Below, piece after piece: positions 23,010 through 62,110 of a stretch of DNA of 64,000 bases. This DNA comes from Mobula hypostoma (taxonomy: Eukaryota): positions 68,078,001-68,142,000 of the forward strand of contig NC_086097.1 of NCBI RefSeq assembly GCF_963921235.1, given 5' to 3'. Numbering within the stretch: the first letter of the stretch is position 1; every line of letters begins with the position of its first letter. The notes below the pieces were generated by a model. The model was not told the origin of the DNA. It worked only from the letters and a program-made list of their open reading frames with translations, and ran no database searches. The position numbers were made by a program, and so were the translations under genes.

Positions 23010-23191
23010 CAAACAAGGGAAAATCTGCAAACGCTGAAAATCCAAGCAACACACACAAAATGCTGAAGGAATCCAGCAGTTCAGGCAACATCTATTGAAA
23101 AGAGTAAACAATTGATGTTTTGGGCTGTTTACTCTTTTCCATAGATGCTGCCTGACCTGCTGAGTTCTTCCAGCATTTTGTGTGTGTTGCT
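23010..23191. mobile_element. Fold-back Penelope pLTR-only insertion
   Basis: Inverted arms cacacacaaaatgctg...aagagtaaaca and tgtttactctt...cagcattttgtgtgtg. TSD agcgttaaagactta (22995-23009) and agcgttatagactta (23192-23206). Confidence 0.85.
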
Positions 23192-23206
23192 AGCGTTATA
23201 GACTTA

Positions 23207-24240
23207 GACCAAAGGTATAGGAACAGAATTTGGCCATTCAGCCCATCGAGGCTGCTCTGCTATTTCATCATGGCTGATCCTGGATCCCACTCAACCCCAT
23301 ACACCTGTCTTCCTGTTGTATCCTTTGATGCCCTGACTGATCAGAAAACGATTAACTTCCACCTTAAATATACACATGAACTTGGCCTCCTTTGCAGTCT
23401 GTGGCAGAGCATTCCACAGATTTACTACTATCTGGCTAAAAACATTCCTCCTTACCTCTGCCAAAAAGGGTCGCCCCTCAATTATGAAGCTGTGCCCTCT
23501 AGTTCTGGATACCCCTACCATAGGAAACATCCTCTCTAAATTCACCCTATCTAGTCACTTCAACATTCAATGAGTTTCAATGAGATCCCCACGCATTTGT
23601 CTAAATTCCAGTGAGTACAGGCCCAAACCTGCCAAACGCTCCTCGTATGTTAACAGCTTCATTCCCAGAATTATCCTCATGAACCTCCTCTGGGCTCTTT
23701 CTAGTGACAACACATCCTATCTGAGATACTGTTGACAATATTCCAAATGCGGCCTGACTGGTGTCTTATAAAGGCTTAGCATTATCTCCTTGAGTTGGGC
23801 ACGTGGCTAAGTGGTTAAGGCATTCGTCTAGTGATCTGAAGGTTGCTAGTTTGAGCCTCAGCTGTGGCAGCATGTTTGTATCCTTGAGCAAGGCACTTAA
23901 CATTGCTCTAGTGTCTGTGTGAGGAGGGGCGCCCCACACAGACTTCCAATCTGAGCCTTGTAAGGCATGAAAATGCCCGACGCAGGCCTCTCATGGTCTG
24001 AGTCAACGTTCCCTCCCTTCCCTCCCATTACTTCCTTACTTTTATATTCTATTCCCCTTGAAATAAATGCCAACATTGCATTTGCCTTCTTCACCGCAGA
24101 CCCAACCTGTAAATTAACCTTCTGGGAGTCTTGCATGAGGATTCCTAAGTCCCTCTTCATCTCTGATGTTTGAACCTACTCCTGGTTTAGATAATAGTCT
24201 GCACTATTGTTCCTTTTACCAAAACGCGTTATCATACATT
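23207..24240 (-). mobile_element. CR1 3' fragment interrupted by a SINE
   Basis: ORFs 23291..23545 (RTRGHSF..FSQIVVNLWNALP) and 23897..24160 (KKANAMLAFISRGIEYKS). Confidence 0.9.
23793..24025 (+). mobile_element. tRNA-derived SINE with a CORE-like central domain
   Basis: A box tggctaagtgg, B box agtttgagcc, CORE-like tccttgagcaaggcacttaac and a (ttccc)n tail. TSD cattatctcctt (23780-91) and cattacttcctt (24026-37). Confidence 0.8.
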
Positions 24241-24244
24241 TACC

Positions 24245-24534
24245 AGTGTTCTAGTGCTTGATTTTCATCAGCACCGATGTGCACAAATTCATCGATGAAT
24301 TTCTCTGCTGCTTTGTGATCATCAGATGCTTTATCCATAATTTTTAAAAATCTTTAGACTTTTAATACTGTGCCTATTCTCAGAACTGTCTATGGTGCAC
24401 AAAGACCTGTGCATCACCTGGGAACCTTCCCACCACCTTGTGGAATTTTCCATTTTTGACATCATGACAGTGCTTAAAAGAATTTTGGATTTCAGAGGTT
24501 TTCGGAATTTCAGACAAGGGGTACTCAACCTGTA
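24245..24534. mobile_element. Tigger/pogo-like DNA transposon end fragment
   Basis: Ends ...ttttcggaatttcagacaaggggtactcaacctg|ta, a CAGGTTGAGTA-type TIR followed by TA. Confidence 0.45.
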
Positions 24535-25049
24535 CCATTCAAGCCACACTGCCCCAGCAACCCCACAATCCCAATTAACCCTAATCTAATCACAGGGCAA
24601 TTTACAGTGACTAATTAACCTACCCAGTATGCCTTTGGATTATGGGGGGAAGCCGTAGCTCCTGGGGAATACCCAATCCACAGGGAGGACGCAGAGAGAC
24701 TCCTTTTGGGACAGCACCAGAATTGTACTATGAACCTAAGCTGTAATAGCACAGTGCTATCCACTACGCTACACTTGTTGTAAATCATAATTTGTCAATG
24801 AATCAATCAGCAATGAAGATGGGGAAATTGGAAGGCAAACTCTTGTTTATAACAAAAATAAGCACTTAATGTAAAGAGAAACCAGAAGAATTCAGCGGAT
24901 CATGCAGCAACTATGGAATGAAATGGATAGTCAACATTTCGGGTCAAGACCCTTCACCTCAACTCAGATGTAAAGAAAAGTTCTTTCAACAGTAAGAAGG
25001 GAAATTGAGCCAACAAAGGAGGAAGCAAAAATGGTGACTAACATCTTAG

Positions 25050-25800
25050 AATTATAGAGTTATAGAGGAATACAGAATGGAAACAGTCCCTGGAGCCCGA
25101 CAGGTCCATGCTTTCCACAGCATCCTCCCTGCTAGTCCAAGATGCCCCATTTGGCCCATAACCCTCCAAGCCCTTCCCCTCAGGTACCTATCCAAATGCC
25201 TCAGATGTTGCAATTGTACCCACCTGATCACTGCCCCTGTAGATCATTCTAGATACTCACTTCCCTCTGTTTATGGAAGTTACCTCTCTGATCTCTTTTA
25301 AATCTCTCCCCTCTTGTACTTGTGCCCTCTAATTTTGAACTCTCCGACCCAGGGGAAAAGACTATAACCTTATGCATGGCCCTCAAGATCTTATAAACTC
25401 CTTTGAGATCAGCCCTCACTCTCCTGCGCTCCAGGGCATAGAGGTTCACCATGGCCAACATATCCCCATAACTCAGGCCTTTATGTCCAGGTAGCCGGTC
25501 TCCTGCATCCTCTCCAGCTAGTCAATGTATTTCCTATAACAGGGTGACCAAAACTGTATACAATACTACAAGTGCTTCCTCACCAATGACTTACATAACT
25601 ACAACATAATGCCCCTCCTCCTAAGCTTGATGCACTAACTGATGAAGGACAGCATGCTAAAGACTTTCTTCACCATTCTGTGAACTCGCATGCCCACTTT
25701 CAGTGAACTACGCACCAGGTGCCTCTGTTGCTCGTCAGTGCTCTGCCATTCACTGTGTAGATCCTGTCCTGTCTGAAGTGTCCAAGATGTTGTTGCTGAA
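25050..25800 (-). mobile_element. CR1 3' fragment
   Basis: ORF 25249..25461 (LYALERRRVRADLKGVYKIL), with a 'tatagagttatagag' tail at the left. Confidence 0.8.
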
Positions 25801-26221
25801 GGACATAATGATGGTAACACCATTAAACATCAAGGGTAGGTGGCTAACAATGATTAACCTGGACTGTTGTGCTAACTGGTTGCTTAATGTGAGGTGACCT
25901 GAATGCTTTTGGTGCATCACTATAGACCAGAACTGCCTCCATAACATAGTGTGCATGTAAAAGTGATAACAATGATAAACTCCAGATAATGTTTAGGCCT
26001 AACATAAATACACAAAGATTCCAAAGTAGATAAATGAATAAATGTATATATAAATGGTAAATGGCGTGCTTGAGGTTGCTAATTCAGAATAATTAAGTTC
26101 TCTGAACCTTTATTGCTCTTGTTACACAGCTGCTTTTAGCTTCTGTGTTTAACAAGTACTGTAGATAGATTTACACAAACGATGAATAAACTGTCTGGTA
26201 TTTCCACATCACTCTACTTAC

Positions 26222-26365
26222 CACTGAAGTGCAGGCAAAGCACTCCATGTTGTCAGCGAATTGGTTTTATGGAGGTTCTTGTTGAAATAGGGAGCAGGAA
26301 GTGTCGAGAACCTGCGGCATTTCTGTCAATAACTGGGATAAAGGCATGGGATTACTGACAAGAAA
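26222..26365 (-). other. Candidate 144-nt exon carrying 5' UTR and a possible start codon (MECFACTSV)
   Basis: ctttgttccatatgtttcag| ... GACAACATGG (ATG at 26248, A at -3, G at +4) ... CAGTG|gtaagtag. Nine codons to a phase-0 donor. Unique sequence with several CpGs. An upstream ORF precedes it. Confidence 0.45.
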
Positions 26366-26519
26366 CTGAAACATATGGAACAAAGTCCTAAAAGTTCTTC
26401 TCTACAAAGGAAGGTGGATTAGCCATACAACACATGATGAACCAACATGTTTTGAGTGAGGGTTATTCTACTGTGCACGAAGCCAGCGATGTCATCGTCA
26501 AAGAGTCGCAGATTCAGAC

Positions 26520-27570: not shown

Positions 27571-27639
27571 GCAATAGAACAAGCCTCCATTTAAAATGCA
27601 CAATAGCCTTTTCTCCACTTTCATTGTCATTGCTTCAAA

Positions 27640-28815
27640 ACCTGGGCCTCTGTACTTCCCTCTACAATTAGAACCTCCACTTATTGGGAGACCACAGTCA
27701 GTGCAGATCAGTAAAAATATATCCTCCTTACTGACAGTCAACACAGGCACACCTCAAGGACTCATGCTTAGCCCACTGCTCTACCCTATCTGCTCTCATG
27801 GCTGTGTGGCAAAGTACAGCTCAAATCTCATGGTGATGAAGAGGCACACAGGAGTGAGATAGATGGGCTAGCTGAGTGACATTGCAACAATAAACTCACT
27901 CAGCATCAGCAAGACTAAAGAAATGATCGTAGACTTCAGGACAGGGAAGTTGGGAGAACATACACTAGTTCGCCTAGAGGGATCAGTGCCAAAAAGGCTG
28001 AACAGCTTTAAGTTCTTGGGCATCAATATTTCAGAAGGTCTATACTGGGCTCAATACCATCATGACGCAATCATGAAGAAGACATGCCAACAGACCTGCT
28101 TTGTTAGGGATCTGAGGGGATTCAGTCTGTCACCAAAGACTCTTAAAAATTTCTATAGCTGTGTCGTGGAGATCATTGTGACTAGTTGCATCACAGTCTG
28201 TCATGGAGCTTCCAGTGCACGAGATTATAAGAAGATGCAGAAGATTGTAGACTCAGCCATCTCCAACATGGCTTTCCACACCATTGAGGAAGACATCAAG
28301 AGACAGTACCTCAAGATGGCCGCATCCATCACTAAGAACCCTCACCATTCGGGGCATTTCTTCTCCTCGTTACTACACTGGGGAGAAGCTGCATGCAACT
28401 ATTTAGAAAAGACTTCTTGATCTCTGCCATCAGACTCCTGAATTGTCCATGAAACTATGAATCTTATCTCATTATTCCTTACAATATACACAAAATGCTG
28501 GAGGAACACAGCAGGCCAGACTGCATCTATGGAAAAGAGTAAACAACAGTTGACATTTCAGGCTGAGACCATTCATCTCTGCCCAAAATGTTGACTGTTT
28601 ACTCTTTTCCATTGATGCTGCCTGACCTGCTGAGTTCCTCCAGCATTGTGTGTGTGTTGCTTGGATTTCCAGCATCTGCAGAATTATTTGTGTCTTTGCC
28701 CTATTTATTTATTGTTGTAATTTATACTAATATTTATGTCTTTGCATTGTACTGCTGATGCAAACCAAGAAATTTCATACTATCTAATTAAGTGGTAATA
28801 AATCTGATTCTGATT
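27640..28815 (+). mobile_element. Rex1/Babar LINE RT 3' half and UTR
   Basis: 'LTVNTGTPQGLMLSPLLY' and ORF 27923..28420 'MIVDFR..FKFLGINIS..LKNFYSCVVEIIVTSCITV'. Ends in a ctgattctgatt tail. Confidence 0.88.
28487..28698. mobile_element. Fold-back Penelope pLTR insertion inside the Rex1 3' UTR
   Basis: Short left arm tacacaaaatgctggagg..., long right arm ...ggatttccagcatctgcaga. Decayed hammerhead halves at the centre (28548-28596). Confidence 0.85.
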
Positions 28816-30059
28816 GTAGAGAGAGCAAATCAAGGGATGGGAGTGCAAGAAAGCCTTGGTAAATGCAGAGTACCAGTTGTGGGAAAAGGAGAATAATCAA
28901 TCAGGATTATGTCAGTACATTGTGTGGGGGCACATTCAGATTGGTTGCCAGGTAGAAGGTAGATGGGGGTTATATTGTGGCATCCTTTAGTCACAACTTT
29001 TAAGTGGTTAAAATGTAAACCATGCTGAGAGAGATTAAAGGAGTGTTTTCCATTTGTGGATAATTTATCATATTATTCCAGCAAAATCAGTATAGTAATT
29101 AGCTGAAAATGCTAGTTAAGTATCCAGCAAAGAACAGGAGTGAAGATTATCAGAATGGACACAGATCATAAAATTTCAATAAAGCACTGTGGTGTGTGGG
29201 ATGATGCATGAATCATTTTCAAACCTCAGCTGACCAAAGTTGAATTGTGCAGATTGAAAGGTTGGAGATTTGCATCATTACCTTTGAGGTTCAAGAAGAG
29301 TTTTCTGTAAATTCTCAGCTCTGGATGTTTTCTGTGTTTGGTCATTCCTCTTGGGAAGACAGATTGCCAAGATATGGAATGCTTTTGTACACACTTGGAC
29401 AAAAAGAACTTTCTCTTATTCCATTAATAGGGCAGATTTTAATGATGCCAATCTTTGTTGCTGCACAGTTTTGCATTCAGGTGGCACCGACTTCTTTGCA
29501 GACTACAAGTGGCAACCAGGTCACAGGAGGAGAGAAATAAGACCTCACTTTTGTACCACCATAATTACCTTCTGGAAGTGCAAATATCAAAAGGTATTTT
29601 CAGCATTTATAAATGTATTGCTAATCAGAAACATTTAGAACCAGTGTGAAAATATAAATGATTAAAATATGTAAAATTTAAAAGAAGAATGAGTTTTTAA
29701 AAAAAAACTCATCAAATGCTGTGAATTTTCTAAACACTTGAGTATACTTTGAAATAAAGAAAAAAGTATTTCAATTTACTTTTTTAAATGAAGATACTTT
29801 AAGATGTTTTCATCATTCAAACAAACAGGTCTGTACTAGCAGGAGTGTCTATGCATAGCATCAGACCTACAGAACACTGTCAAAGGTGAGTCTAAGGCAG
29901 ACAAACACTGGTGTAAAGGTTATAATTTATTTCCACATTAGTCTCTGCAGACACCCATGTCCACTGTTTGACTGGATTTCCAGGGAAATTGAAGCAAAGT
30001 GGTTTGGGGTTACACTGTGGAGAGAGCCACCAGTCCACTAAAATAAAATACCAGTGAAT

Positions 30060-30465
30060 TGGAGGACTAGAGAGTCCTTCTCCGAACTCATCATTCTTGA
30101 CTCGAGGTACTTGAAGTCAAAGACTTTCTTAATGGTATCATTCTTTACGGTCTTGAGAGTACCTTCGTCGCAGTTAAACGCCATGTACTCTGTCTTTTTA
30201 GCGTTTAGGTGAAGTCCAACTTCATTGCACTCAATTTCCACTTTTGTCAGTAGCTGCTGTGCTTCCTCCATCTGGTCAGAGAGCAGGACTATGTCATCTG
30301 CAAAATCGAGATCCGTGAGTGCAACTGGTCTGACCCTTTGGTTCATCCTGGTTTTATGATAAAACCAAGCTTGTCATGATCTTTGGTAGCTTGACGCAGA
30401 GCGTAATCAAGGACGATTTTAAAGATGTAGGGTGCCAGGGTGTCTCCTTGCAGCACACCTTGAAG
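30060..30465 (-). mobile_element. RTE-clade LINE RT fragment
   Basis: GVLQGDTLAPYIF.IVLDYALR followed by ORF 30038..30346 'DLDFADDIVLLS..GLHLNAKKTEYM..FKYL'. Confidence 0.85.
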
Positions 30466-30469
30466 TCAA

Positions 30470-30765: not shown

Positions 30766-30769
30766 AGGA

Positions 30770-32040: not shown

Positions 32041-32139
32041 TACGAAGATGATATAAACCACAAGCATACAGAAATCTGAAACTAACTTTGTAAAAGCTTT
32101 ATAAAATTGAAACCAGATCAGTACCATTTAATAAAGAAA

Positions 32140-35535: not shown

Positions 35536-35536
35536 T

Positions 35537-39580: not shown

Positions 39581-39769
39581 GATTCATCTTAAAAGTCCTG
39601 TTTATTTGAACACTTTTGCTGAAATAGCAAATTGGGATATGTTACAAGTACATTATATCTTTCAACACTGGAGTAAATTAGATGATATTGATTTGGCTGC
39701 TTATACACACTGTCTGAACAGTGCTCAAACTGCTAATATAAGAAAAAGAGAAAACAATTCCTGAAACCT

Positions 39770-39960
39770 CAATGATTTATCTTTTGGCTCCTCCCACTTT
39801 CTCCAAACTGAAGGTGTAACCGTGGGCATCTGCATGGGCCCCAGCCCGAAATGTTGACTGCTTATTCATTTCCATAGATGCTGCCTGACCTGCTGAGTTC
39901 CTCCAGCATTTTACATGTGTTACTCTGGATTTTCAGCATCAGCAGGGTCTCTTGTGTTTA
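39770..39960 (+). mobile_element. Internally deleted Penelope fragment (RT motif fused to pLTR)
   Basis: cccactttctccaaactgaaggtgtaaccgtgggcatctgcatgggccccag (compare 9443-9495) joined directly to cccgaaatgttgactg pLTR text. Confidence 0.75.
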
Positions 39961-40832: not shown

Positions 40833-42178
40833 GAAACATAGAAAACCTACAGCACAATACAGGTCCTTCAGCCCACAATTCTGTGCCGAATATGTACTTA
40901 CTTTAGAAATTACCTAGGGTTACCCAGAGCCCTCTATTTTTCTAAGCTCCATGTGCCCATCAAGGAGTCTCTTCAAAGACCCTATCATATCCACCTCCAC
41001 CACTGGCTGGTAGTCTATTCCACGCACTCACCACTCTCTGCGTAAAAAACTTACCCCTGACATCTCCTCTGTACCTACTTCCAAGCACCTTAAAACTATG
41101 CCCTCTCGTGTTAGCCATGTCAGCCCTGAGTAAAACCCTCCAACGATCCACATGATCAGTGCCTCTCATCATCTTGTACACCTCTATCAGGTCTCCTCTT
41201 ATCCTCCATTGCTCCAAGCAGAAAAGGCCGAGTTCTCTCAACCTATTCTAATAAGTCATGCTCCCCAATCCAGGCAACATCCTTGTAAATTTCCTCTGCA
41301 CCCTTTCTATAGTTTCTACATCCTTCCTGTAGTGAGGCGACCAGAACTGAGCACAGTACTCCAAGTGGGGTCTGACCAGGGTCCTATACAGCTGTAACAT
41401 TACCTGTGTATAGGACCCTGGTCAGACCCCACTTGAAGACCAATGCACTGTATGCTGGCTTAACCACACAGTCAACCTGCACAGCAGCTTTGAGTGTCCT
41501 ATGGACACAGACCCCATGATCCCTCTGATCCTCCACACTGCCAAGAGTCTTACCATTAATACTATATTCTGCCATCATAATTAACCTACCAAAATAAATC
41601 ACCTTATGCTTATCTGAGTTGAACTCCATTTGTCACTTCTCAGCCCAATTTTGCATCCTATCAATGACCCGCTGGAACCTCTGACAGCCCTCCACACTAT
41701 CCACAACTCCCCCAACCTTTGTGTCATCAGCAAATTTACTAACCCATCCCTCCACTTCCTCATCCAGGTCATTTATAAAAATCACAAAGAGAAGGGGTCC
41801 CAGAACAGATTCCTGAGGCACACCACTAGTCACCGGCCTCCATGCAGAATATGACATGTCTACAACCACTCTTTACCTTCTGTGGGCAAGCCAATTCTCG
41901 ATCCACAAAGCAAGGTCCCCTTGGATCCCATGCCTCCTTACTTTCTCAATAAGCCTTGCATGGGGTACCTTATCAAATGCCTTGCTGAAATCCATATACA
42001 GCTATTGCTCTACCTTCATTAACGTGTTTAGTCACATCCTCAAAAAATTGAATCAGGCTCGTAAGGCACGACCTGCCTTTCACAAAGCTATGCTACCTAT
42101 TCCTAATCATATTGTGCCTCTCCAAATGTTCATAAATCCTGCCTTTCAAGATCTTTTCCATCAACTTACCAACCACTT
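40833..42178 (-). mobile_element. CR1 ORF2 3' region and (atagaaac)-type tail
   Basis: ORFs 41633..41869 (SGVPQESVLGPLLFVIFINDLD..KFADDTKVGG) and 40960..41241. Confidence 0.92.
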
Positions 42179-42874
42179 TATGTCTGCATCTCTACAGTTC
42201 AAGGCACACTGAGTTTCTTGAAACTCTTACCGTTTATTCTGCAGTACCAAAGCTGCCTGGCAGAATACTATATGACTGCAGCATGCACAAATGAGGTTTC
42301 TTAAAATTACAACTAAAATACGGAGAATGCCATTCAAGATTTTAACTTCCATCAGGGGATCTGAGATCATTGTGTCAAGCAATGTAAACAGAAAGACAAC
42401 AATGACAAGTCACTGTTTGCTTAATTGTCCTTTGTCTGATCTCAGTCTACTGTGAATTCCTCTGTGATGATTGCTTGGAATGTCAGTGCATTCAAATCAA
42501 TCTACCTGAAATTTCCTCTGGCTGGTGCAATAAGAGTCACATTCTCAAGATAGGACCAATTGAAGTATCAATTTACATAATTAATCTTCAAACAGGGTTA
42601 ATCTGCTAATGGCTAAAAGCATCTTTTGTAAGCTAGATGCAGATGTTGATCAATTGGAGAATTAAAGGAAAATTCAAGTCAGCTGGCTCTAGAGCTCTGA
42701 TTCCAGTTTATTGGAAAGACAACGTGGAGGCCAATGAAATCTAATGTAAATAGCTCTCTCAACTTTCTGCTACTTTAAGTGCCATGCTAAATGGCTGGCA
42801 CTTAAATTCAGGTGCATCAAACAATAACTTCACCTAATTGTTAACTGATTTCTATAGTTCTGACATAGAAAAGA

Positions 42875-43710
42875 GGCAGTTTCAGTCTAAGGGTGAAGTC
42901 TCCATTAGTACTTTCTACAGCATCCTGACGGAATGTACTTGTGGAAAGGCTGAGCAGCTGGGAAGGGTCCGGGAGGAAGAGCTGGGAATACAAATTACAG
43001 CTGAAAAATGGGAAGACATCTGTGATAATGCAAAGAAAGTTTCAGTTTGTAATAGAACTAAAGCATTGCAACTCAAAATTCTGCATAGATCCCATCTGAC
43101 TCCAGATCGTCTCTCGAAATTTAAGATGGGGGCTTCTCCAATGTGTTCTAAATGTAAAGTAAATACTGGAACATTCACCCACTGTTTTTGGACTTGGTCC
43201 CAAACTTCAGGCATACTGGAGTGATATTTTGGGTGAAATGGAAAAGATTCTGAAGATGGAGCTTGAACTGGACCCAGTTTCTTTTCTTTTAGGCTTACCC
43301 TGCAGTCGTATTATTAATGCACATCAGAAAAAACTTTCTAACATCCTGACTTTTTGTGCGAGGAAGAACATTTTACTTCGTTAGATATCCGATAAGGCCT
43401 CTGGACTTTTTGGTTGGCGTAAATTAATCATGGAATACATTCCATTGGACTCTTTGACATGTACGGTACACTCAAAAACAAATAGTTTTCATAAAACATG
43501 GTAACCTTTTCTGCAGTATATAGATATAAATCTGTCTGCTATACTAATAAGGGCTTTTGTATAGGATGTTGTGGTGATGTCTATATTTTGATGAAAGTGT
43601 TCTGATACCTGATATCTCTGAGGGGAAGAAATGGAAGTGTATCTGGAAATTGAAAGTTTTGTTATGCTGAGCAAAAAAAAACTTTTTTAGAAATACAATA
43701 AAATAAAAAC
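42875..43710 (+). mobile_element. L1-clade LINE ORF2 C-terminus (CCHC) and 3' UTR
   Basis: ORF 42838..43224 'QLKILHRSHLTPDRLSKF..CSKC..GTFTHCFW'. A-rich end aataaaataaaaa. Confidence 0.85.
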
Positions 43711-44595: not shown

Positions 44596-44697
44596 ACCTG
44601 CCCCCCGCCACCCAAGTTACAGATACCTAAAGTGAAAGACTGGTAAATTAGTTTATTGTTGTCACATGTGCTGAGGTACAGTGAAGCACGTGTAAGA

Positions 44698-47160
44698 TAC
44701 ACACACAAAATACTGGAGGAAGTTAGCAGGTGAGGCAGCATCTATGGAGAGGAATAAACAGTCAACATTTTAGGTCAAGACCCTTCATCAGGACTAGAAA
44801 GGAAGGGAAAAGAAGATAGGAGGAGGGGAAGGAGTATGAACTGGAAGCTGAGGAGGATGTTAGGTAAGTGTGGAGAGGGAGATGAAGTGAGAAGCTAGGA
44901 GGTGAGAGGTGGAAAAGGTAAAGTGCAGAACAAGGAATCTGATAGGAGCATGGAACGTAGGAGAAAAGGAAGGAGGAAGGGAACTAGAGGGAGGTGATAG
45001 GCAGATGAGGAGAAGGGAAGGGGTAACAGGGGAGCCAGAATGGGGAATGGAAAAAGAAAGAAGAGGGAGGGGGCAAAATTACTGGAAGTTAGAGAATTTG
45101 ATGTTCATATGTCAGGTTGGAGGTTAACCAGGTGGAATGAGGTGTTGCTCCACCAACCTGAGTGTGGTCTCATTCTGGCAGTACAGAAGGCCATGGACTG
45201 GCGTATCGGAATGGGAATGGGAAATCTAATTAAAATGGGTGACTATTTTAATTCTGCTTCCCATTCCTGCCTCTTGTGGATGGAGTGAAGTTGCTCGACA
45301 AAGCGGTCCCCCAATCTACGTCGGGTCTCACCAATGTAGAAGAGGCTACACTAGAAGAATCGGATACAGTAGATGACCCTGAACATGCCAGAGGGGTGAT
45401 CAGTGGGCAAGGGAGTCACAGAGAGAGCAATCCCTTTGGAAAGTAGACAGTGGAGGGGGAGTGAAGATGTGATGAGTGGTAGGATCTAGTTGAGGATGGC
45501 AGAACTTATGGAGAATGATGAGCTGGATTGAGAGGCTTATAGTGTGGAAAGTACAGTAATGACAAGGGGAGCTTGATCTCCATTATGATGGTGGGAAGAT
45601 TGGGTGAGGAAATGGAGAAAATGCAGATGAGGGCAGCATCAATGGTAAAGGAAGGGAAACTCTACTCTTTGAATAAGGAGGACATCTCAGATGTTCTGGA
45701 ATGGAAGATCTCATCCTGTGAACAGATGTAGTGGAGACAGAGGAACTGAGAAAAGGGAATAGCATTTTTACAAATGATAAGATGGGAAGAGATTTAGTCA
45801 AGATAGCTGTAAGAGTCAGTAGGTATATAAAAGACAGTCTATGTCCAGAAATGGACAGAGATATTGAGGTGTCAGAGATGGACCAAGTAAATTTGAGGGT
45901 GGTTGGAAGCTGGAGTCAAGGTTGATGAAATTGACAACCTCCGCATGGGTGCAGAAAGCAGCACTGATGCAGTCGTCAACGTAGCACAGAAAGAATTGAG
46001 ATGAGTTACCAAAGAAGGCTTGGAACATGGACTGTTCAAAGTTCAAATTGTATGTCACCACATACAACCCTGAGACTTATTTTCTTGAGGGCATACTCAG
46101 TAAATCAAGAACCATAATAGAATCAATGAAAGACCATACACAACAGGGAAGACAAGCGACCAATGTGCAATAGACAACCAACTATGTAAATACAAAAAGA
46201 AAAAAAGAAATAATAATAATAAAGAAATAAGCAATAATTATCAAGAACATGAGATGAAGTGTCCTTGAAAATGAGTCCATAGTTTGTGGGAACAGTTCAG
46301 AAATGGGGCAGGTGAAGATATTCCCACTGGTTCAAGAGCCTGATAGTTGAGGGGTAGTAACTGTTCCTGAACCTGGTGATGTGAGTCCTGAGGCTCCCAT
46401 GCTGCCTTCTTGATGGCATCAGTGAGACGAGAGCATGATCTGGTTGGTGGGGGTCTCTGCTGATGGATGAATATTGCTTTTCTGTGACAGCATTTAATGT
46501 AGATGTGCTCAATGGTGGGGTGGTTGGGGTCTCTGATAATGGATGCTGCTTTCCTGCAACTGCGCTCTGTGTAGATGTGCACAGTGGTGGGGAGGGCTTT
46601 ACCCATGATGGACTGCGCCATACCCACTACTTTTTGTAGGATTTTCCATTCAAGGGCATTGGTGGTTCCATACCTGGCTGTGATTCAAGCAGTTAATATA
46701 CTCTCCACCACACATCTATAGAAGTTTGTCAAAGTTTTAGATGTCATGCCATATCTGCAAGCTTCTAAGCAAGTAGAGGCACTGCTATGCTCTCTTCATA
46801 ATTGTATTTATGTGTAGGTCCTCCAAAATAATAACACTGAAGAATTTAAAGTTGCTGACCCTCTCCACCTCTCATCCCCTGATGAGGACTGGCTCATGGA
46901 GCTCCAGTTTCCTCCTCCTGAAGTCAACAATCAGCTTCTTGGTCTTGCTGACATTGAGAAAGAGGCAAGATGGTGCCAGAGAACCATGGCGACGCTCTGC
47001 AGGATGCTTACAAAACTTCTAAATAAACTTCTGCTTACTGTTTCATGAAGCCAATGAAAAGGCAAGCATAGCTGGGGCCCATGCAACTTCCCATGGCTAC
47101 ATTGTGAGTTTGGAGAAAGTGAAAGGAGCCAAAACAGAGGAAGGTGGTGGTGAAGGGAAC
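44698..47160 (-). mobile_element. Penelope-like element (RT to pLTR), decayed, split by a Rex1 insertion
   Basis: pLTR and hammerhead at 44759-44796. ORF 45816..46067 'FEQSMFQ..FLCYVDDCI'. RT 'AMG..MGPSYA' resumes at about 47050-47120. Confidence 0.85.
46038..46960 (-). mobile_element. Rex1/Babar 3' fragment nested in Penelope
   Basis: ORF 46297..46512 'LRTHITRFRNSYYPSTIRLLN'. Tail (aagttc) at the left. Confidence 0.85.
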
Positions 47161-47389
47161 TGGTTACGTCTGTGAAAAGCTTGTCTTGCATACCGTCCAT
47201 ATGGATTGTTGCATTACAACAGTGTATTAAGGTAGCTTAAGGCAAAAACAACAACAGAATACAGATTAGTGTTACAGTTACAGAGAATATACAGTGCAGG
47301 TAGATAATAAGCACAAGTCTTTTAATTGTGCTCATCAAGAATTTATTTGTGAAAAAGCTCACAATGGGCCTACAATGGTGAGTGGACAG

Positions 47390-48125
47390 TTTACCTCTCA
47401 GTCAAGACTCTTCATCTGGACTAAAAGATAAAAGGAAGATAGCCAGTAAATAAAAGATGGAGGGAATTGATGGAACGAGAGTGGAAGGTGATAGTTGGTA
47501 GGTCCAGGGAAGAGAGGAAATAGTAGCAGAAAATGGGACGAGATAGGGTAAGTGATACAATCTAATGGGAGAGGAAGGTTAAACATAGAATAAAGGAAGG
47601 GAGGTGAGGAGTAGTGGGGGAAGGAGTGTGTGTATGATGGGCAGATAGAATGGTTGGAAGAGTAGAAAAGTTATGGTGATGGGGGCCACATAGATCAGGA
47701 GGGAAGGGAAAAGGGAGTGGGAGGGGGATCAGATTTTGGAAGTTGGCATATTTGGTGATTATTCTGCCGAGTTGTAATCTGCCCAGGAGGAATACTAGGT
47801 GCTGTTTCTCAAGTTAGGAATACAACTATATTTAAAATTGGTTACCTTTCCTCTATTTCTTAGTCCAAATGAAGGGAAAGGTCTTATCCAAAATGTTGAC
47901 TGCCTAGTTCCCTCCATAGATACTGCTTGACCTGCTGAGTTCTACCAACGTTTTGCGTTTTGTTCAAAATTCCAGTGTCTGCACTTCAGGACTTGGTCCC
48001 AAAGAAGGATCTCAGCCCAAAACATCGACTGTTTATTCATTTCCATAGATGCTGCCTGACCTGCTGAGTTCCTCCAGCATTTTGTGTGTGTTGCTTTGGA
48101 TTTCCAGCATCTGCAGAGTTCCTCA
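47390..48125. mobile_element. Penelope pLTR cluster (one minus, two tandem plus copies)
   Basis: Decayed hammerhead cores at about 47400-47422 (minus), 47862-47902 (plus) and 47996-48031 (plus). Confidence 0.75.
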
Positions 48126-51100
48126 TGCCATTGATTCTACGTTTGTTACTTTCTAATCTTTCCACTAATGGTAAAAGGCCTTGCAAATGACATGTGAGAT
48201 GGGGTTACATGGACTCCCTTTCTGATTACAAGTATGCCATTATCTAATTTCAAATATCTCTTGTGTCTTCAACAAGTCTTGTTTAACTTGGAGGAAATAC
48301 TGTATCTATGCACGTTCTTTTCTGGGGGAAGCTTTTGTGGCCGTTAGAAATGAAGGTCAAGATTAATTTGCTATAAAGAAGGTTAACCTTCTGAACTATA
48401 TTATGTAATGGGAGAGTATTGTACCTTCACCCAACAATGGTCATTCTATTGAAAGAGGCCACAGGGCTACTCTGAAGTCTGAATAAATATCCTACATTTA
48501 ATTATTTTTGATGGCAAATTATTTATTGCCTTATTACAATGAGTTTCCAATTATCTCCTTTTTGCAAGGGTGTTCAAGACTAACTTGGTCCCAAAAGCTT
48601 CATCTCTTCACTGGAAGTATTTCACTTTCACACTTTCTTTAACCCTGGTGTAAGATAAGTATTAATGTAAGAAAGCAATAACATTAAAAAAGAAATGTTT
48701 AATTAATTAAATGGCCTTTCATTCAAGAGAATACAATTTTTTTAAAATAACACATAAAACACAACCTAGATCACAAAATTTTCCTGCAATTTTTGAAAGC
48801 AGCTTAGTGAAATACTCTGAAAACGAAGCAAATTCTTCCCTTTGTTATATGATTTCTGAATAGTTCATGAATGGATGAACACCACCTTATTATTTCTTCT
48901 TTTGCATTATTTATTTATTTCATAATTTATAGTCGATTTTTGTGTTTGCACAGTACTGTTGCCACAGAACAAAGCAAAATCATGTCTTAGAAGACAATGA
49001 CAATAAACCCGATTCTGAAATTAATTTCTCCATACTTCTAAGATGTTGGTTGGGTACTGAAAATACTACCATCTCAGCTGCCAGGCAAAATACAGCCGTG
49101 ACAGATGGTTTCCCAATCACATTGTTAAAAAAATTGCAATATAGTTTTCATCTTCTGTTTAGTGTTTCTAAAAAATAAACCTACATTTTAAGCTGGATAC
49201 CTAATGCTACTGAAACACCCTCTGACACCTATTAACTGATTAATTGATTTGGAAGCATCTTTTTCTTAGAACTTTTGAAAAATAAATTATGTTCTTACAG
49301 ATATTACTTTCTTAGATTGCTTAGTAAACTTTGGGAAAAGTTAGAAGAACAGCAATCTTTTGCAAACAAATAAATCAGCAAAGTCAGAAAACATCATGGT
49401 ATATCTGCTACAACTATTTTCTGGCCAATGTTTAGATACATTAAGTGAAGGGTTACCTTGACATTCTGTGCACAAAGGTCAGTGTTCTTGGTCCACAATG
49501 TCGAGATGACAACTGAACTATCATTACAAAGACAAAGGTCAGACCTAAGGTGATTGGTGATAGAACTATCAAATTAACCAGTCAATACTAGCAAGTAGTC
49601 ATGTCTCCGGGGGCTTTCACTGGACAAATACCAGCTTGTCAATAAGAAACTAAAGCAATTGTTATGACATATTTCCATAAAATGTGAAATTTTGTTTCCC
49701 ATACCCAAAAATGATTTACATACACTAATGTGTTCTGAAATGCATAATTCTACCAAAGCAATTATTCAAGAGTGAAAGAGAAGTTCAACCATGAACTAAA
49801 CTAAATATGTCTTCCTATCTCAGGGTGGAAGATAAGCAATTAGCTAACAACATCACTGAAAGTATTTAGGTTGCAATTTTGCAAGCCATTCTTTGTCACT
49901 TTCATAACCCAAAGAATAACTACTTAATCAGTCCCAGTCTCATTCCATTATTATACTGTGCAAACTGGCTAAAACCAGTGAGATCCTCTGACACTATAAA
50001 ATTAATTCAATAACATACATTATTTACATGTAGCTATAATTAGCTATGGCACTTTTATTTTTCCAAATTCATCTAAAATGTGAAACCAGATGTATTTCTT
50101 TGGAGAAGGCATTACCTTGTATCTGTGATTTAATCATATTAAACTAGGAAAGTCTTAAATTACAGAATTTGTTGGAAAATAATTCAGACGTATAAACTTT
50201 TTTGGTTTGATTGATGATGCTGGACTATGTGTGCACTGCCTTGTCAAATCATGCAGAGGTTGGACGACTGATGGACTTAACCTTTGGTCCCACTCTATAA
50301 TCGTCTTGCAGCATAACCTTAGTTTGCTAGACAGCCCACAATTAGAAAGTCTAAACAGTTCATCTCTAAAATACAATGGATCAAAAAGAACTTGATATGT
50401 TAATTTAAATACAGAAGCAAGTAACAAGAACTCTATGAGCTCTTAAATGTCATCTTGTGTTATGCATGGCAACATCTGATTGACTGAATTACTAATTTAG
50501 CTGTCTTCTTTACAGTACCACATCTAAATGTTTTATAGGAATATAGCTTTTATACAGACAGAATTGAATGTTACACCAAATCTCTCAATACTGCATTGTT
50601 GTCAACCAATCTTATCTTTTTGCTCAGGCTCCTTAAAGACAGCCACCTAATGCATGTTCAGTCGGAGCTGTGCTTAAGATTATAAAACTAATTTAAAATA
50701 TTACGTTCTGGCTAAAATCACATTTGATTATGTTTAACTAGATAGGCTTGGAACAAACCTTCAGGTGAAAATTCTGAATAATAGTCAATATTTCTTTTTA
50801 TATGAATATCACAATTAATAATGATTTTTTCTTTCATATTTTAATTTTTTTGGTGTTTGGAATAACAAGGACTAATGCATTGTGAAAAATAACTTATTTC
50901 TAAACCCTGCAGTTAACAACACAACACTACACAACTAAATAATTTAAAAAGATGAAAAATGTGCACAAGGCTAATTAAAATTTTCATCTGAATTTTGAAT
51001 AACAATAACATAATCTGTTAAGAATTTATAACAATTTAGAAATTATCAAATGTGGTTTCAATTCATTATCGAAAGTGTATGATTCTCAAATGGTTATAGG

Positions 51101-52554: not shown

Positions 52555-54345
52555 AGAAAGAGAATTAAGGAGAAGGTGCTTAAGGAGCTGAAAGGGCTGA
52601 AGGTAAATAAATCAGATGGTCTACATCCCAGAGCAGATGGACTACACCCCCGATTTCTGAAAGAGGTACCTGAAGAGATTTTGCAGGCAGTAAAAGTGAT
52701 CTTTCAAGCATCACTGGAGTCAGGGAGGTTCTCAGAGAACCGGAAAATTGCAAATATAACATCTCTATTTAAGACGGAGGGAGGCAAAGGCAGAAAATTA
52801 TAAGCCAGTTACCCTGACCTCAGCACTTAGCATGATTTTAAAGTCCATTAATGGTGAAATTTTGGAGTACATGGAACTACATGATAAAATAGGATAACGT
52901 CAGCATGGTCTCATTAAGGGGAGATTTGCTTGACAAATACGTTAGAATTCCTTGAGGAGATAACAAGCAGGTTAGTTAAAGAAATGTCAATGGGCATTAT
53001 GTCCTTGGATTTTCAGAAGCCCCTACAAGACTGCTGAACAAGATAAAAGTCCCTGGTGTTAGAGGCAAGCTCCTATCATGGATAGAAGATAGGCTGACTG
53101 ACTGAAGACAAGTGGGGATGAAAGGGTCCTTTTCAGGATGGCTGCCAGTGATTGACAGAGTTCTGCAGGGATTGGTGTTGGGACCATAGCTTTTCACTTT
53201 ATATATTAATAATCTGGATGAAAGAACTGATAGAATTCAGGCCAAGTTTGAGATGATACAAAGACAGGTGGATGGGCAGGTAATATTGTGGAGGCAGCAA
53301 ATCCGCAGAAGGACTTTGCCAAGTTGAGGAGCAGGCAAAGAAGTGGCAGATGGAATACAGTATAGGGAAGTCCAATCACAAAAGAGCGAAAATCTGCAGA
53401 GGCTGGAAATCCAAGTAACACGCACAAGATGCTGGAGGAACGAAGCTGGCCAGGCAGCATCTATGGAAAAGAATACAGTCGATGTTTCAAGCTGTGACCC
53501 TTAAGCAGGACTGCTGAAGGGTCTTGGCCCAAAACGTAGACTGTACCCTTTTCCATAGATGCTGCCTGGCCTGCTGAGTTCCTCTAGCATTTTGTGTGTG
53601 TTACCAGTATAGGGAAATGTAAGTTTATGCACTTTGGTTGGAAGAATAAAGATGTAGACTATTTTGTAATTTGAGAAATAATTCAGAAATTGGAGGTGCA
53701 AAGGGGGGAGTCAAAACTTAGGATTCCCCCAAGGTTAACTTACAGTTGAGGAAGGTAAATGCTTCATTTCATTAGTATTTATTTCGATATGTATTGCAGA
53801 AGTTTTATAAGGCATTTGTATGACTGGATTTGGAATGTTGTGAGAAATTTTGGTTCCTCATCTGGGGAAGGATGTACTGGCCTTGCAGAGGGTCCGGAGG
53901 TGGTTTACTTAGAATGGCCCCAAGAATGAACGGTTAAGAACAATGCGTGTTTGATGGCTCCCGGCCTACACTTGATGGAGTTCAGAAGGATGGCTGGAAA
54001 TTTCATTGAAACCTATGGCATATGAAAGCTCTGAGTAGAGTGGGCATGGGGAGAATGTTTCCATTAGTAGGGAAAACTTTTCCATTAGGATCAAAGGACA
54101 CAGTCTCAGAATAAAGGGATGTCCCTTTAGAACAGAAACAAGGAGGAATTTTTTCACCTGGAGGATGGTGAATCTGTTGAACTCATTGCCACAGAGGGTG
54201 GTGGAGTTCAATTTATTGAGTGTATTTTAGGCAGAGACTGATAGGTTCTTCATTGGTAAGAGAGTTAAGGATTACAGGGACAGTACAGGAAAATGGGGTT
54301 GAGGAAGCAAAATCCTATATCTACTGTAAATTCTTATGGTCTAAG
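52555..54345 (+). mobile_element. CR1 ORF2 RT region and 3' UTR, decayed
   Basis: ORF 52576..52803 'LKGLKVNKSDGLHPR..LKEV', then ttggattttcagaagccc (LDFQK), then the CR1 UTR. Confidence 0.85.
53370..53604. mobile_element. Fold-back Penelope pLTR insertion in CR1
   Basis: Inverted arms with two opposed decayed hammerheads (53476-53545). Exact 12-bp TSD cagtatagggaa (53358-69 and 53605-16). Confidence 0.88.
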
Positions 54346-54424
54346 ATATTTACCGACACACATACTACTCCACTGCAGGACAACATGATGCACATCTAAA
54401 GCAGCATATTCTATCTGACAGAAG

Positions 54425-55065
54425 AGAGGCTTGGTACATATTGGAAAAAAAGCTTGTGTTTCCCCTAGACATTGCAGCTACAACACTCCGGCCAGACATG
54501 GCCCTGTGGTCTACAACAGCCAAGCTGACATATGTTGTGGAATTGACAGTACCATGGGAAGATGGCGTCGAAGAAGCTTATGAGAGGAAAAAGATCAAGT
54601 ACTCTGAACTGGCAACTGAAGCTGCCCAGAATGGCTGGAAGACCAAGATTTTCCCTGTAGAAGTGGGATGCAGGGGGTTCGTTGCTACATCTACGACCAG
54701 TCTATTGAAGAAGATGGGGGTGAGGGGTCACTCCCTCCAACAAGCAATCAAGTCCTTCTCAAATGCAGCAGAAGGAAGCAGCAATTGGATTTGGATTAAA
54801 AGGAAAGACAACAACTGGGCTGCAAGATAAAGACAGGAGGGTATGGAACTGAGGGGGGTGTATCTGGGACGCCACGTTGCACCGCTGAGCCCTCTGGAGA
54901 CATCGTGGGCTTATCAACGAAACGTCAAAGGAGGGTGCCCACCTGATGACCCCGATGACGTACCTACCCTCCCTCCTTGTCACCACTCCAAACCCACTGC
55001 CAACATCGAGAGTGCCAACTTACCATCGGGATTGAAACATCAAGTCCTGGTAGCTCTACTCTACT
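54425..55065 (+). mobile_element. HERO-like (R2-group) non-LTR retrotransposon: restriction-like endonuclease C-terminus and 3' UTR
   Basis: ORF 54441..54830 'LRPDMALWS..VELTVPWE..AYERKKIKY..PVEVGCRGF' has the RPD/E/K.KY RLE motifs. Ends ctctactctact. Confidence 0.85.
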
Positions 55066-59700: not shown

Positions 59701-60270
59701 TTGTATCTATTTTAATGACGGGAAGGGCAGATGAATCGAGAGCTTGATAAGTACAAGGTACTTTGCTGTCAAAATGATATGGTTGAAAGAAGGGCAGGAC
59801 AGACAACTCAACATTTTAGGGTATAAATTCTTCAGGCATGATGGGGCATAATGTAAAGGAGTAAATGGTATTACAAAACCAATTCAGAAGACCACAATGT
59901 AATAATGAGAGAGGATATCAAAGAAGACTCTTCAAGTCAGGACATCAGGATGCAGCTTAGATTATAAAAAAGAGGCAATCACTTTGTTGAAGATTTACTA
60001 TAGACCACCTGACCTCAGGGAGGTTAGAGAAGTAAATATGCAGATTTCTGAGAGAGTGGTGTTGGAATGATAAGGTTATAAGAGTAGAAGTTTCACCTTC
60101 CCCAAAATTAACTGGGACTGAATTTCTAAGACAAGTTACCATCTCCAAAGGATGGTATTTTATGTTTCAGCAGGTGGACAAACACACAGAGCCAATGCAA
60201 TGTATCCCAGGCTGTGAGAGGTGGCAAGGGAGCAAATTGCTGATACTCTGACAAAGATTTTTGAATTGTC
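56740..60270. mobile_element. Cluster of old CR1 fragments (plus and minus) with a Rex1 3' end at about 57040-57340
   Basis: 'KVLEKLMGLK', 'KQKVGNYCSV' and antisense 59000-59310 'ARGHIYK'. Heavily decayed. Confidence 0.6.
58354..58882 (-). mobile_element. Second internally deleted Tc1 copy
   Basis: ORF 58543..58908 'DLSDFDSGMVVGGRRGGLSVSKTADLLRFSSTIVSRGYRKW' (Tc1 paired-like HTH). Left TIR ta|tactcactggccactttattaggtac. Confidence 0.88.
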
Positions 60271-60279
60271 TCTGGTCAT

Positions 60280-61180
60280 CATGATCATCATCATTGTGTG
60301 CTGTGTTGTATGATGTCGGCGATCATGGTCTTCCATCTGTCTCTAATAGATAGGTAGATACTTTATTGATCCCAAAGGAGATTACAGTGTCACAGTAGCA
60401 TTACAAGTACACAGATATACAAAAATTAGAAGAGATGTAAGAAAGAATAAAAAATAAGTTACATCAAACAGCTTAAAGAAGGGGTCATCACTTCCCTGGC
60501 TATAGGTTGACTCATTATAGAGCCTGAAGGCTGAGGGTAAGAATGACTTCATATAGTGCTCTTCCGAGCAATTTTGAATAAACTCTTCAAAATTTTTGCA
60601 TATCCATCCTTTGATGTAACTCATGAATCTCATGCACTGTCGACCGCTACTTTTTCTTTCATCAGTTTTTCTGGTAACTGCAAGGTGTTCGAGCTTCTCT
60701 TTCCTCAGTACACGTTCCAGAAATTCCAGCCACTGTTTCCCAGTTAATGATATCAGTCTCTTCTTATTTCGGCTTTTCATAACACTTCCTCATTTGTTAC
60801 GCTGTCCTTCCATGATATTCTCATCATTCTTCTCAAAGAACACATTTCTGTTTTCTGAGTTTGTGCTTTGATATTGTTCAACATTCACTTCCATATGTTA
60901 GTGTGGAAAGAATGTAGTACCGCAACACTCTGAATTTCACACCCATAGAAATTATGTAACTCTTTAGTAGCTTGCTCAAACACTTGAACGTTCATTTAGC
61001 AATCCCAATCTTTCTTCTTATTCCAACATCAGCCTGGTCATCAGATGCTATTGTGCTCCCCAAGTAATTAAAATGCCGTACTTGTTTAATTGTTTTGATT
61101 GCTTACTTTCAGTTCGCTTTTCTGTATTTATTTCTTCTTTGGGACAACCATATATTCGGTCTTTTTGCAGTTGATAGTGG
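60280..61180 (-). mobile_element. RTE-clade LINE 3' fragment with a Rex1 3' end inserted (about 60340-60555)
   Basis: 'KKTEYMVV', 'HFNYLGSTI' and 'LEHLAVT..RKSSGRQ'. (gat)n tail near 60280-60295. Confidence 0.75.
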
Positions 61181-61815
61181 TAGGAATGTTATTAGCAAAA
61201 CATTGAGAGGTTGAATTAATCTGCACTTTAAAGGTGGAGATTAATTGTAGATGGTCAACATGGCTTTGAGCAGGAGAAATCCTGTATAACCAATTTGACT
61301 CACACATCAGCAAGCACTGGATACAAAGCAAAATCAAAATCCTATGCCAAATGGTGGACCACAGGAATTGATGCTGAGCCATCAACTACTGGCTACATCC
61401 ATTTAACAACTTGGACAATCATGAGATATGATTAGTAAGTTTACAGATAATACAATAATTGGTGATATTGTTAAAAGTAAAAAGATTGGTCTTAGGCTAC
61501 AATATGATGAATTTGTAAAATGGGCAGAGAAATGGAAGATGGAATTTAATCTTGATCAGTTTGAGATAATGCATTTAGGAGCACAAATAAAACAAAGACA
61601 TTCACAATGAATAATATGGACCTACAGATATTGAAGAATAGAGAGATCTTCATGTACAAGTCCAAAAATCACTGAAGATGACTGCACAGACAAATAAGAG
61701 AATGAAGAAGTCATTCAGGATAATTGCGTTCATTAGCCTGGCATAGAATAAAAGGGCAGAGTGGTTTTGATACAACCTTATAAAGCATAAGCTTTGTAAA
61801 ACATAGCTTGAATAT

Positions 61816-62110
61816 TTATCACAAACAAGAGAAAATCTGCAGATGCTGGAAATCTAAGTGAGACACACAAAATGCTGGAGCAACTCAGCAGGCCAGACAG
61901 CATCTATGGAAAAAAGTAAAGTCGATGATTTAGACTGTCTCCCTTCAGCAAGACTGGAGAAAAATAAAATGATTTAAAAAAAAGATGAGGAGTACTCCTC
62001 ATCTTTTTCCCTCCAGTCCTGGTGAAGGGTCTCAGCCCTAAACATCAACTTTACTCTTTTCCATAGATGCTACCTGGCCTGCTGAGTTCCTCCAGTATTT
62101 TGTGTGTGTT
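61816..62110. mobile_element. Fold-back Penelope pLTR insertion in CR1
   Basis: Long inverted arms centred on aaagatgaggagtactcctcatcttt. Exact 10-bp TSD gcttgaatat (61806-15 and 62111-20). Confidence 0.9.

Follow-up and report, generated by a model that had tools for sequence, protein, structure and literature searches.

Short head-to-head hairpins with hammerhead sequence as insertion stubs of Penelope-like elements

Introduction

Four short palindromes with hammerhead ribozyme sequence in their arms lie along the 64-kb stretch of DNA analysed here (the window), and they raise the question of whether they form a family of their own, driven by the ribozyme, or are left by the insertion of a known type of element. 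A sequence-only reading had favoured the former, seeing in them an under-described, retrozyme-like non-autonomous system templated by a short, ribozyme-processed RNA. The shape itself has precedents, since canonical, endonuclease-bearing (EN+) units of Penelope-like elements (PLEs), with an inverted 5′-truncated copy and a one-sided tail of 30-40 bp, are described in the parts of PMC8557442 and PMC3846280 available to us, and the architecture was already published. The hairpin type is a known insertion shape and no separate ribozyme-driven family. How that shape arises is another matter: the available part of PMC8557442 gives the origin of inverted PLE copies and one-sided tails as an unsolved question, and a literature search covering few subscription papers returned nothing on short PLE units of this head-to-head type in cartilaginous fish and nothing on a two-priming model.

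Four head-to-head insertions

All four palindromes (4/4) were found where the earlier reading had placed them in the 64-kb window. We call them E1 to E4; folded as RNA they reach -99 to -156 kcal/mol, and z-scores relative to 60 mononucleotide shuffles per unit run from -13.5 to -19.0. In E1, the tail-bearing arm (23010..23127, minus strand) spans about -14 to +103, counted from the hammerhead cut site, and the short-end arm (23125..23191, plus strand) starts at +3 to +6, ends at about +67 and overlaps the left arm by at most 3 nt. The short-end arm of E2 (28481..28577, minus strand) extends to -26, beyond the 5′ limit of its partner (centre judged by eye), and the tail-bearing arm (28576..28693, plus strand) starts at -17 with an overlap of 2 nt. 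E3 joins a tail-bearing arm that reaches -33 (53370..53513, minus strand) and holds a complete, though decayed, hammerhead whose core position 6 is C, to a short-end arm starting at -28 (53511..53604, plus strand), with an overlap of 3 nt. In E4 the tail-bearing arm (61816..61993, minus strand) contains a decayed hammerhead plus 3′ UTR sequence upstream of it, the short-end arm (61994..62110, plus strand) starts at about -53, and the junction is a perfect 30 bp palindrome (61979..62008). The centres differ in all four units, as had been noticed, and the joints are overlaps of 2-3 nt or a short perfect palindrome. The spacer variant that follows the cut site is identical on both arms in 4/4 units and takes three forms among them; the left arm of E2 has a 3 nt duplication within it, and the E2 arms also differ at one spacer-independent site (column 122).

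The target site duplications (TSDs) described earlier for three of the units were confirmed, all read on the plus strand: 15 bp with one mismatch in E1 (22995-23009/23192-23206), 12 bp exact in E3 (53358-53369/53605-53616) and 10 bp exact in E4 (61806-61815/62111-62120), where the first 3 nt fit the element end too. When 1,500 random flank pairs were scored against these repeats, as good a score was reached by 1 pair for E1, 2 for E3 and 7 for E4. The E2 flanks were searched and gave no TSD; this unit is an insertion inside another repeat, whose paralogues span its site. The 12-mer of E3 is single in a paralogous copy of its host LINE (8105-8235, minus strand), and paralogous empty sites were found for two of five units (E2 and E3). 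TSD length varies and the duplication is sometimes absent (15, 12, 10 and 0 bp in E1, E3, E4 and E2), as in canonical EN+ PLE units, and direct (non-inverted) insertions in the window bear TSDs of 12-15 bp too. The two arms of a unit differ at 32/246 core sites (13.0%), a divergence no lower than that between units (13.8%); the TSDs differ at 1/37 sites (P 0.038, a value biased by the choice of TSD ends on matches).

The left junction, centre and right junction of E4 occur with 0 differing letters in contigs of the run containing the window, and both junctions are also present in the run of a second organism with 6 and 4 differences, the centre lying outside the pieces listed there. E4, matched by contigs of that run and by a second organism, is therefore no assembly artefact. 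No empty orthologous site was found for it: organism B has E4, and X12 has no flank piece among the matches listed. Judged from the letters of the DNA, E1 to E4 are genuine insertions, each of two 5′-truncated PLE 3′ ends joined head to head.

Arm ends and hammerhead content

The arms are asymmetric, as reported before: exactly one arm in each of the four named units (4/4) carries a tail of ~35-45 nt, the right arm in E2 and the left arm in E1, E3 and E4, and the other arm comes to its end at about +67. A longer unit, E5 (described below), is apparently one-tailed as well, and one tail per unit in E1-E5 has by hand calculation a chance of at most 1 in 32 under independent choice of ends. In three DNA runs loose ends accumulate at each of the two end types, tail and short, with 1,220 and 1,390 records for these in run X1, and the short end coincides with the ends of solo copies (10963, 44693). 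Read depth along E4 was left out as a truncation profile, being confounded by subfamily divergence.

The other ends of the arms are scattered. With centres judged by eye and positions counted from the ribozyme cut site, the 5′ ends lie at about -14, +3, -26, -17, -33, -28, -62 to -70 and -53, so that all eight fall within about 70 nt of that site, and seven of the eight arms retain 14-70 nt of the sequence that precedes it; only the right arm of E1 (1/8) begins near the GUC cut. A loss of similarity somewhere between about -20 and -60 is likewise seen in non-hairpin ends at 39.8k, 47.9k, 48.0k and 24.9k. Tabulating arm end-points, centres relative to GUC and TSD lengths, as had been proposed for all genomic copies, gave no fixed centre and no fixed TSD for the units in the window.

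The hammerhead had been placed at or near the centre of every hairpin. The phrase is too loose: in E1 and E2 both arms hold core fragments only. The whole ribozyme is spanned by just three of the eight arms, none of the eight matches the exact minimal hammerhead core today, and a search with Rfam at the gathering threshold gave 0 matches. Six hammerhead stretches, folded as monomers, did no better than shuffles (z 0.46 to -1.88), as is expected for motifs that are minimal or decayed. E1 and E2 never contained a whole ribozyme.

The parent element and longer units

ORF-bearing copies in the window have the same pLTR end as the hairpins, which bears out the earlier assignment of the hairpin ends to a Penelope pLTR. 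A tblastn search placed an RT plus C-terminal GIY-YIG ORF at 9221-10586 and at 45082-47133, with a related pLTR end behind it in both places, and the closest named relatives of these copies are shark proteins (54-64% identity); the genome is probably that of a cartilaginous fish. One copy (9218..10963, plus strand) is a 5′-truncated, frameshifted, Neptune-type PLE of a sister subfamily, with RT, CX4CxxC linker, GIY-YIG and the short end; its TSD is T-rich and 12 bp long, with one mismatch, and the copy contains a minimal hammerhead of type I whose core is intact (10867..10905, plus strand; predicted cut after 10900). The other (44693..47133, minus strand), also 5′-truncated, links the hairpin-type pLTR end to RT/GIY-YIG coding sequence and is interrupted at about 46038-47037. 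The sequence upstream of the cut site in the hairpin arms is the 3′ UTR of these copies and not a circularly joined tail. The 10116-10724 frame holds CKRNKCYTC, an instance of the CX2-5CxxC RT-EN linker motif by which the Neptune clade is recognised, and by this motif the hairpin parent would fit a Neptune-type PLE. Pfam matched 0 of 5 long frames and 7 of 129 shorter ones (taken from the 158 frames of at least 75 aa), five RT-related and two below the cut-off, and identified no host gene among these 5 long and 129 shorter frames.

Longer head-to-head units occur in the same window. E5 combines a long arm (1140..1755, minus strand), which has a linker and GIY-YIG coding remnant, an apparent, degenerate short end and an internal deletion of the hammerhead region, with a tail-bearing arm (1756..2090, plus strand) starting at about -200; a 12 bp repeat with one mismatch flanks it (1128-1139/2091-2102). 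E6 (21858..22620) is an old unit with a minus arm (21858-22077) and a plus arm containing a GIY-YIG C-terminal remnant (22142-22312). A direct short insertion (39749..39958, plus strand) joins an RT fragment to a tail-bearing pLTR end within a 15 bp TSD with one mismatch (39734-39748/39959-39973), and two tail-bearing pLTR ends form a partial direct tandem (47856..48127, plus strand). A seventh head-to-head unit, pairing 47375-47830 (minus strand) with this tandem, was rejected as too decayed to count as one event. TSD searches for E6 and for the pairing at 44.7-48.1 kb found none.

Origin of the hairpins

We propose, with a probability of roughly 0.6, that each head-to-head pair comes from one insertion event in which the enzyme primes RT twice on uncut RNA, once per target nick. 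GIY-YIG would make staggered nicks 10-15 bp apart; one target 3′ end would prime at the outer start site and give the tail arm, and the other would prime at an inner site, about 35-45 nt upstream, and give the short arm. Both cDNAs would end early, often in or just beyond the hammerhead fold, and their 3′ ends would anneal by microhomology, in E4 perhaps after a short snap-back, repair then filling in. The presence of the hammerhead would follow from its position, 70-140 nt away from the start sites, and the hairpin units would be dead on arrival, with no replicating family.

The nesting of the arms bears most directly on this proposal. In E2 the short-end arm extends 9 nt further 5′ than the tail arm (8 of 9 matching), and in E5 it does so by several hundred nt, coding sequence included; neither arm is contained in the other, so a single fold-back cannot produce those units. 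The units range in size up to the ORF-bearing E5 and E6. Against two primings, only five to seven units were examined in full, E2 lacks a TSD and has arms set apart by the spacer-independent mismatch (column 122), arm divergence is no lower within units than between them, and the non-nesting may stem from later deletion at the hairpin centre, the long arm of E5 having another internal deletion.

A single priming, after which the cDNA turns back on its 3′ end and serves as its own template (a role given to an antisense RNA in the scheme put forward for rotifer PLEs), is an unlikely though serious rival. The perfect palindrome at the E4 joint fits it, palindromes at inverted junctions being taken as self-priming in the part of PMC3846280 available to us, and so do the single subfamily of both arms and the nested or nearly nested arms of E1, E3, E4 and E6. 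Yet it has to add a trimming of the copy at the inner site by the endonuclease, and later central deletions for E2 and E5, whereas the short end matches the ends of solo copies and, by analogy, the RT start site mapped in vitro, which makes the trimming step unnecessary. Less probable still is that the hairpins are long inverted PLE insertions whose middle was lost by microhomology-mediated deletion. Microhomology at the joints, the existence of E5 and E6 and the microhomology-like jump from RT to pLTR within 39749-39958 speak for such a collapse; however, several non-hairpin ends are short too, so that a short extent is general to the family, and the E4 junctions, the part of the unit covered there, are the same in the second organism.

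A retrozyme-like family templated by hammerhead-cut short or circular RNA, as first suggested, now seems very improbable. The right arm of E1 does start 2-5 nt from the cut site, all arm ends lie close to it, one deep contig of run X19 (presumed RNA) has a direct 'goes back' joint, and a pLTR origin has been argued for animal retrozymes. However, seven of eight arms cross the cut site into ordinary 3′ UTR, which tells against a ribozyme-processed template and against a unit that the cut site delimits or that is circularly permuted; neither arm of E1 or of E2 has a whole core; real retrozymes are tandems in direct orientation, every unit having its complete ribozyme, and E1-E4 are inverted pairs; and the same window holds longer head-to-head units with GIY-YIG coding sequence. 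Of the earlier proposal of fold-back or twin priming on processed RNA, twin priming survives as the better option and the processed template does not. De novo formation also stands, and a single master palindrome copied by a DNA transposase (a MITE) has next to no likelihood. The units are short, non-coding, inverted at their ends and present in very large numbers (E4 is matched by 138,794 contigs in run X1), but they show four different centres, unequal ends, three subfamilies and TSDs of 0, 10, 12 and 15 bp. Nine centre-crossing joints among the matches listed all lie at different places, and none recurs in the best-supported rows, the set compared (1,378 and 619 rows left out). With no fixed length or centre, no equal terminal repeats and no fixed TSD, a MITE was ruled out for E1-E4.

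The proposal of two primings has a biochemical parallel. In the available part of PMC11167929, a green anole Penelope protein (PAc, Poseidon clade) cleaves and extends both strands, is predicted to form a dimer and initiates at two internal sites that delimit the tail, without needing ribozyme cleavage in vitro; its two adjacent 3′ ends, which a minimal hammerhead precedes by about 70-110 nt, resemble ours, whereas the linker here is of Neptune type and that part of the paper reports no joined head-to-head double products in vitro. It is conceivable, at somewhat less than even odds, that PLEs in general integrate by a paired two-ended reaction, in which a dimer uses both nicks as primers and two start sites on the same RNA, complete events being one-tail head-to-head units. 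If so, cartilaginous-fish genomes would be a very large natural record of the reaction, and non-nested arms would supplant the self-priming account of inverted pLTRs.

Relation to known systems

LINE-1 twin priming is a related process: both target strands prime cDNA on the RNA and the products are joined by microhomology. There, the second primer lands far upstream and yields an inverted, non-overlapping 5′ part, whereas here both primings would begin close to a common 3′ site and run over the same stretch. As far as PMC8557442 and PMC3846280 were available, canonical EN+ PLE units share with the hairpins the head-to-head inverted copy (present in 4/4 named units, E5 and E6), the tail at one end, the overlap or palindrome at the junction, the partial tandems nearby and a similar TSD length (8-10 bp in the rotifer), and their minimal type I pLTR hammerhead is represented by the predicted intact core at 10873 and in decayed or partial form in the eight arms. 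They differ in that both copies are here cut to 70-180 nt, leaving a pure hairpin, at very high abundance and with two units non-nested. Dual minimal hammerheads on opposite strands, 100-700 bp apart, are ascribed to truncated PLEs in Schistosoma (PMC4209133, in part), a study whose scope, as far as seen, leaves tail, TSD and junction outside. Pattern scans of viral contigs and, run twice, of metagenome contigs gave 0 loci, and 11 bacterial matches of only 19-24 nt each were discarded as chance.

As a family the hairpins are ordinary, and their value is as test material for PLE insertion: in less than 300 bp, a short unit between TSDs preserves the two 3′ ends of one event together with its two points of truncation, and a genome-wide table of such units could discriminate between two-ended priming and fold-back. 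Repeat annotators may file such hairpins as Penelope insertion stubs, neither MITEs nor retrozymes. Animal non-LTR retrozymes, as the available parts of 10.64898/2026.07.22.740005 and PMC7761336 describe them, are likewise short, non-coding and pLTR-related with a type I hammerhead, but they are direct tandems with a whole ribozyme each and form circular RNAs, whereas the units described here are inverted pairs, mostly without a whole ribozyme.

Palindromic insertions and their parent elements

The four short palindromic insertions (E1–E4) previously proposed from the sequence alone are all present in the window at the places claimed. In each, an antisense arm precedes a sense arm, both taken from one and the same 3′ end of a Penelope-like element (PLE), so that the PLE 3′ ends face outwards, and each folds as a single long stem (z from −13.5 to −19.0 against 60 shuffles). 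The target-site duplications (TSDs) claimed for three units were also recovered, at E1 (23010–23191; 15 bp, one mismatch), E3 (53370–53604; 12 bp, exact) and E4 (61816–62110; 10 bp, exact), with equal scores in 1, 2 and 7 of 1,500 random flank pairs, respectively; none was found in the flanks of E2 (about 28481–28693). Older non-LTR repeats host E2 and E3, and such a repeat forms the right flank of E1. In comparisons within the window, the E3 TSD 12-mer occurs a single time in a paralogous LINE copy, and paralogues of the E2 host repeat cross the insertion site with no clear duplication there. Contigs of X1, the sequencing run containing the window, agree with both E4 junctions and its centre with 0 other letters, and both junctions are also present in X5, a run of a second organism.

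The PLE family supplying the arms is very abundant, since about 20 related ends were counted by hand in the 64-kb window and 138,794 X1 contigs match E4 at 80% likeness, a contig tally rather than a copy number. A 5′-truncated copy at 9218–10963, with RT and GIY-YIG coding sequence and a T-rich TSD of 12 bp, has its nearest named relatives among shark proteins (54–64% identity) and carries in its linker a CX4CxxC motif, a linker type that PMC8557442 gives as a mark of Neptune and Nematis. This copy terminates in a minimal type I hammerhead whose core is intact, predicted to cut after 10900, and in a version of the arm sequence that is sister to the arms, differing at 16 of 61 core sites; the end of a second ORF-bearing copy (44693–47133) is closer to the arms (10 of 62).

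A continuum of PLE insertions

The sequence-only reading regarded the hairpins as a family in their own right, a view that does not hold, as the same plan recurs in longer head-to-head units and direct insertions show TSDs of like size. E5 (1140–2090) has a long arm that retains coding sequence for the linker and GIY-YIG, and the unit is flanked by a 12 bp repeat (one mismatch); E6 (21858–22620) is an older pair in which a GIY-YIG remnant survives and for which no TSD was found. The direct insertions have TSDs of 12 bp (9218–10963) and 15 bp, the latter at 39749–39958, where RT coding sequence is joined straight to the hammerhead stem; about 1.4 kb of the element is missing between these two parts. 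Nine centre-crossing joints of paralogous copies, taken from the top of a list with many further rows, some of them uncounted, all fall at different places, with no fixed master centre among them. The short hairpins are part of a continuum of PLE insertions.

Their plan of an inverted copy and a one-sided tail is of a kind already described for PLEs. PMC8557442 reports inverted 5′-truncated copies adjoining at the 5′ end, with 30–40 bp tails that are often one-ended; PMC3846280 describes inverted units of the PLE end repeat (pLTR) with TSDs of 8–10 bp, a tail, a 15 bp overlap and 18–38 bp palindromes, and PMC4209133 mentions opposite-strand hammerhead pairs 100–700 bp apart. Retrozymes consist of directly repeated tandem units, each of which includes a whole ribozyme, whereas E1–E4 are inverted pairs, and the whole hammerhead core is absent from both arms of E1 and of E2.

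A partial tandem of PLE ends lies at 47856–48127; at 47375–48127 a decayed minus-strand PLE 3′ part with an endonuclease remnant adjoins this plus-strand tandem and its two pLTR ends, possibly as a further head-to-head unit.

Two primings or a single fold-back

The units have two fixed outer boundaries, a short end at around +67 and a tail end at around +103 to +111 from the hammerhead cut site, and loose ends pile up at both in three DNA runs. According to PMC11167929, such ends map to two internal start sites of the RT, both target strands are cleaved and extended, and the anole PLE enzyme is predicted to be a dimer. In the scheme that we favour, every enzymatic step of which is inferred, each nicked target strand would prime one cDNA and the 3′ ends of the two cDNAs would join, giving TSD, antisense arm, joint, sense arm and TSD, the order seen. 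Overlaps of 2–3 nt at the joints of E1, E2 and E3 are compatible with microhomology joining, and the 30 bp palindrome at the E4 joint would fit a short snap-back before joining. One tail per unit is seen in 5/5 units (E5 less surely), with a chance of at most 1/32 if ends were chosen independently. A spacer variant is identical on both arms in 4/4 units, which is suggestive of a single RNA or a single source locus.

Alternatively, one cDNA could prime itself, leaving one arm wholly inside the other; this single fold-back is compatible with three of the four named units, and junction palindromes are interpreted in PMC3846280 as products of self-priming on an antisense template. However, the tail-less arm reaches further 5′ than its partner in E2 (9 extra bases) and E5 (several hundred), while the tail is on the partner only. 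Because these arms are not contained in each other, both units need two primings, unless their centres were deleted later. Counting against two primings, in the few units of this one window, arms are no more alike within units than between them (13.0% vs 13.8% differences), the E2 arms differ from each other at one otherwise unit-specific site, and TSDs are better preserved than arms (1/37 differ; P 0.038, uncorrected for the choice of TSD ends on matches).

The role of the ribozyme

The earlier proposal of a ribozyme-processed RNA as template is not borne out. A template cut at the GUC would be expected to give arms starting at +1, and only the right arm of E1 is near this position among the eight arms. 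With centres judged by eye, as computed starts shift with the reference used, arms start at about −14 and +3 to +6 (E1), −26 and −17 (E2), −33 and −28 (E3), and −62 to −70 and −53 (E4). Moreover, the sequence upstream of the E4 hammerhead is not a rejoined tail, as it aligns, at 76% over 118 nt, with 3′ UTR sequence in the ORF-bearing copy at 44.7 kb. Core position 6 is C or G in E3 and E4; A predominates in the family (in X1, A 289,769 and C 66,213 of depth 385,453). For the anole PLE, PMC11167929 reports normal in vitro insertion with ribozyme mutants and no RNA reads ending at the cut site. The hammerhead is incidental to hairpin formation.

Run X19, which is guessed to be RNA, contains one deep contig with a centre-crossing joint (depth 725) and one with a direct joint that goes back (depth 1,167), both of them seen at contig level only. 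Tail ends joined to opposite-strand short ends recur, at 61818/61822 with 61863 and at 61854 with 61818 (10 and 12 contigs in X1, 3 and 7 in X5, 21 and 8 in a further run, X12). One form of tail-to-tail joint has only 2 letters between; such joints would be consistent with hairpin units in tandem, with a circular intermediate or with an insertion into the end of an element itself.

Arm divergence and other repeats

The arm antisense to the window's plus strand is the more diverged in 4/4 units, wherever the tail sits (E1–E4: 26/246 vs 10/246 core sites, two-sided P 0.011, post hoc; 31/228 vs 13/228 with solo copies as reference), and no host gene that could account for this bias was found in the window.

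Non-LTR retrotransposon ORF fragments with RVT_1 or zf-RVT matches (Pfam) lie at 8096–8761, 30041–30373, 41636–41872 and 42838–43221, and one without a Pfam match at 54345–54830. A 610 bp repeat, with no third copy found within the window, occurs at 11842–12450 and 13885–14519, the copies being 87% alike, face to face and 1.4 kb apart. Each terminates in short TAATC repeats, and between them sits a PLE 3′ fragment (about 12463–13036).
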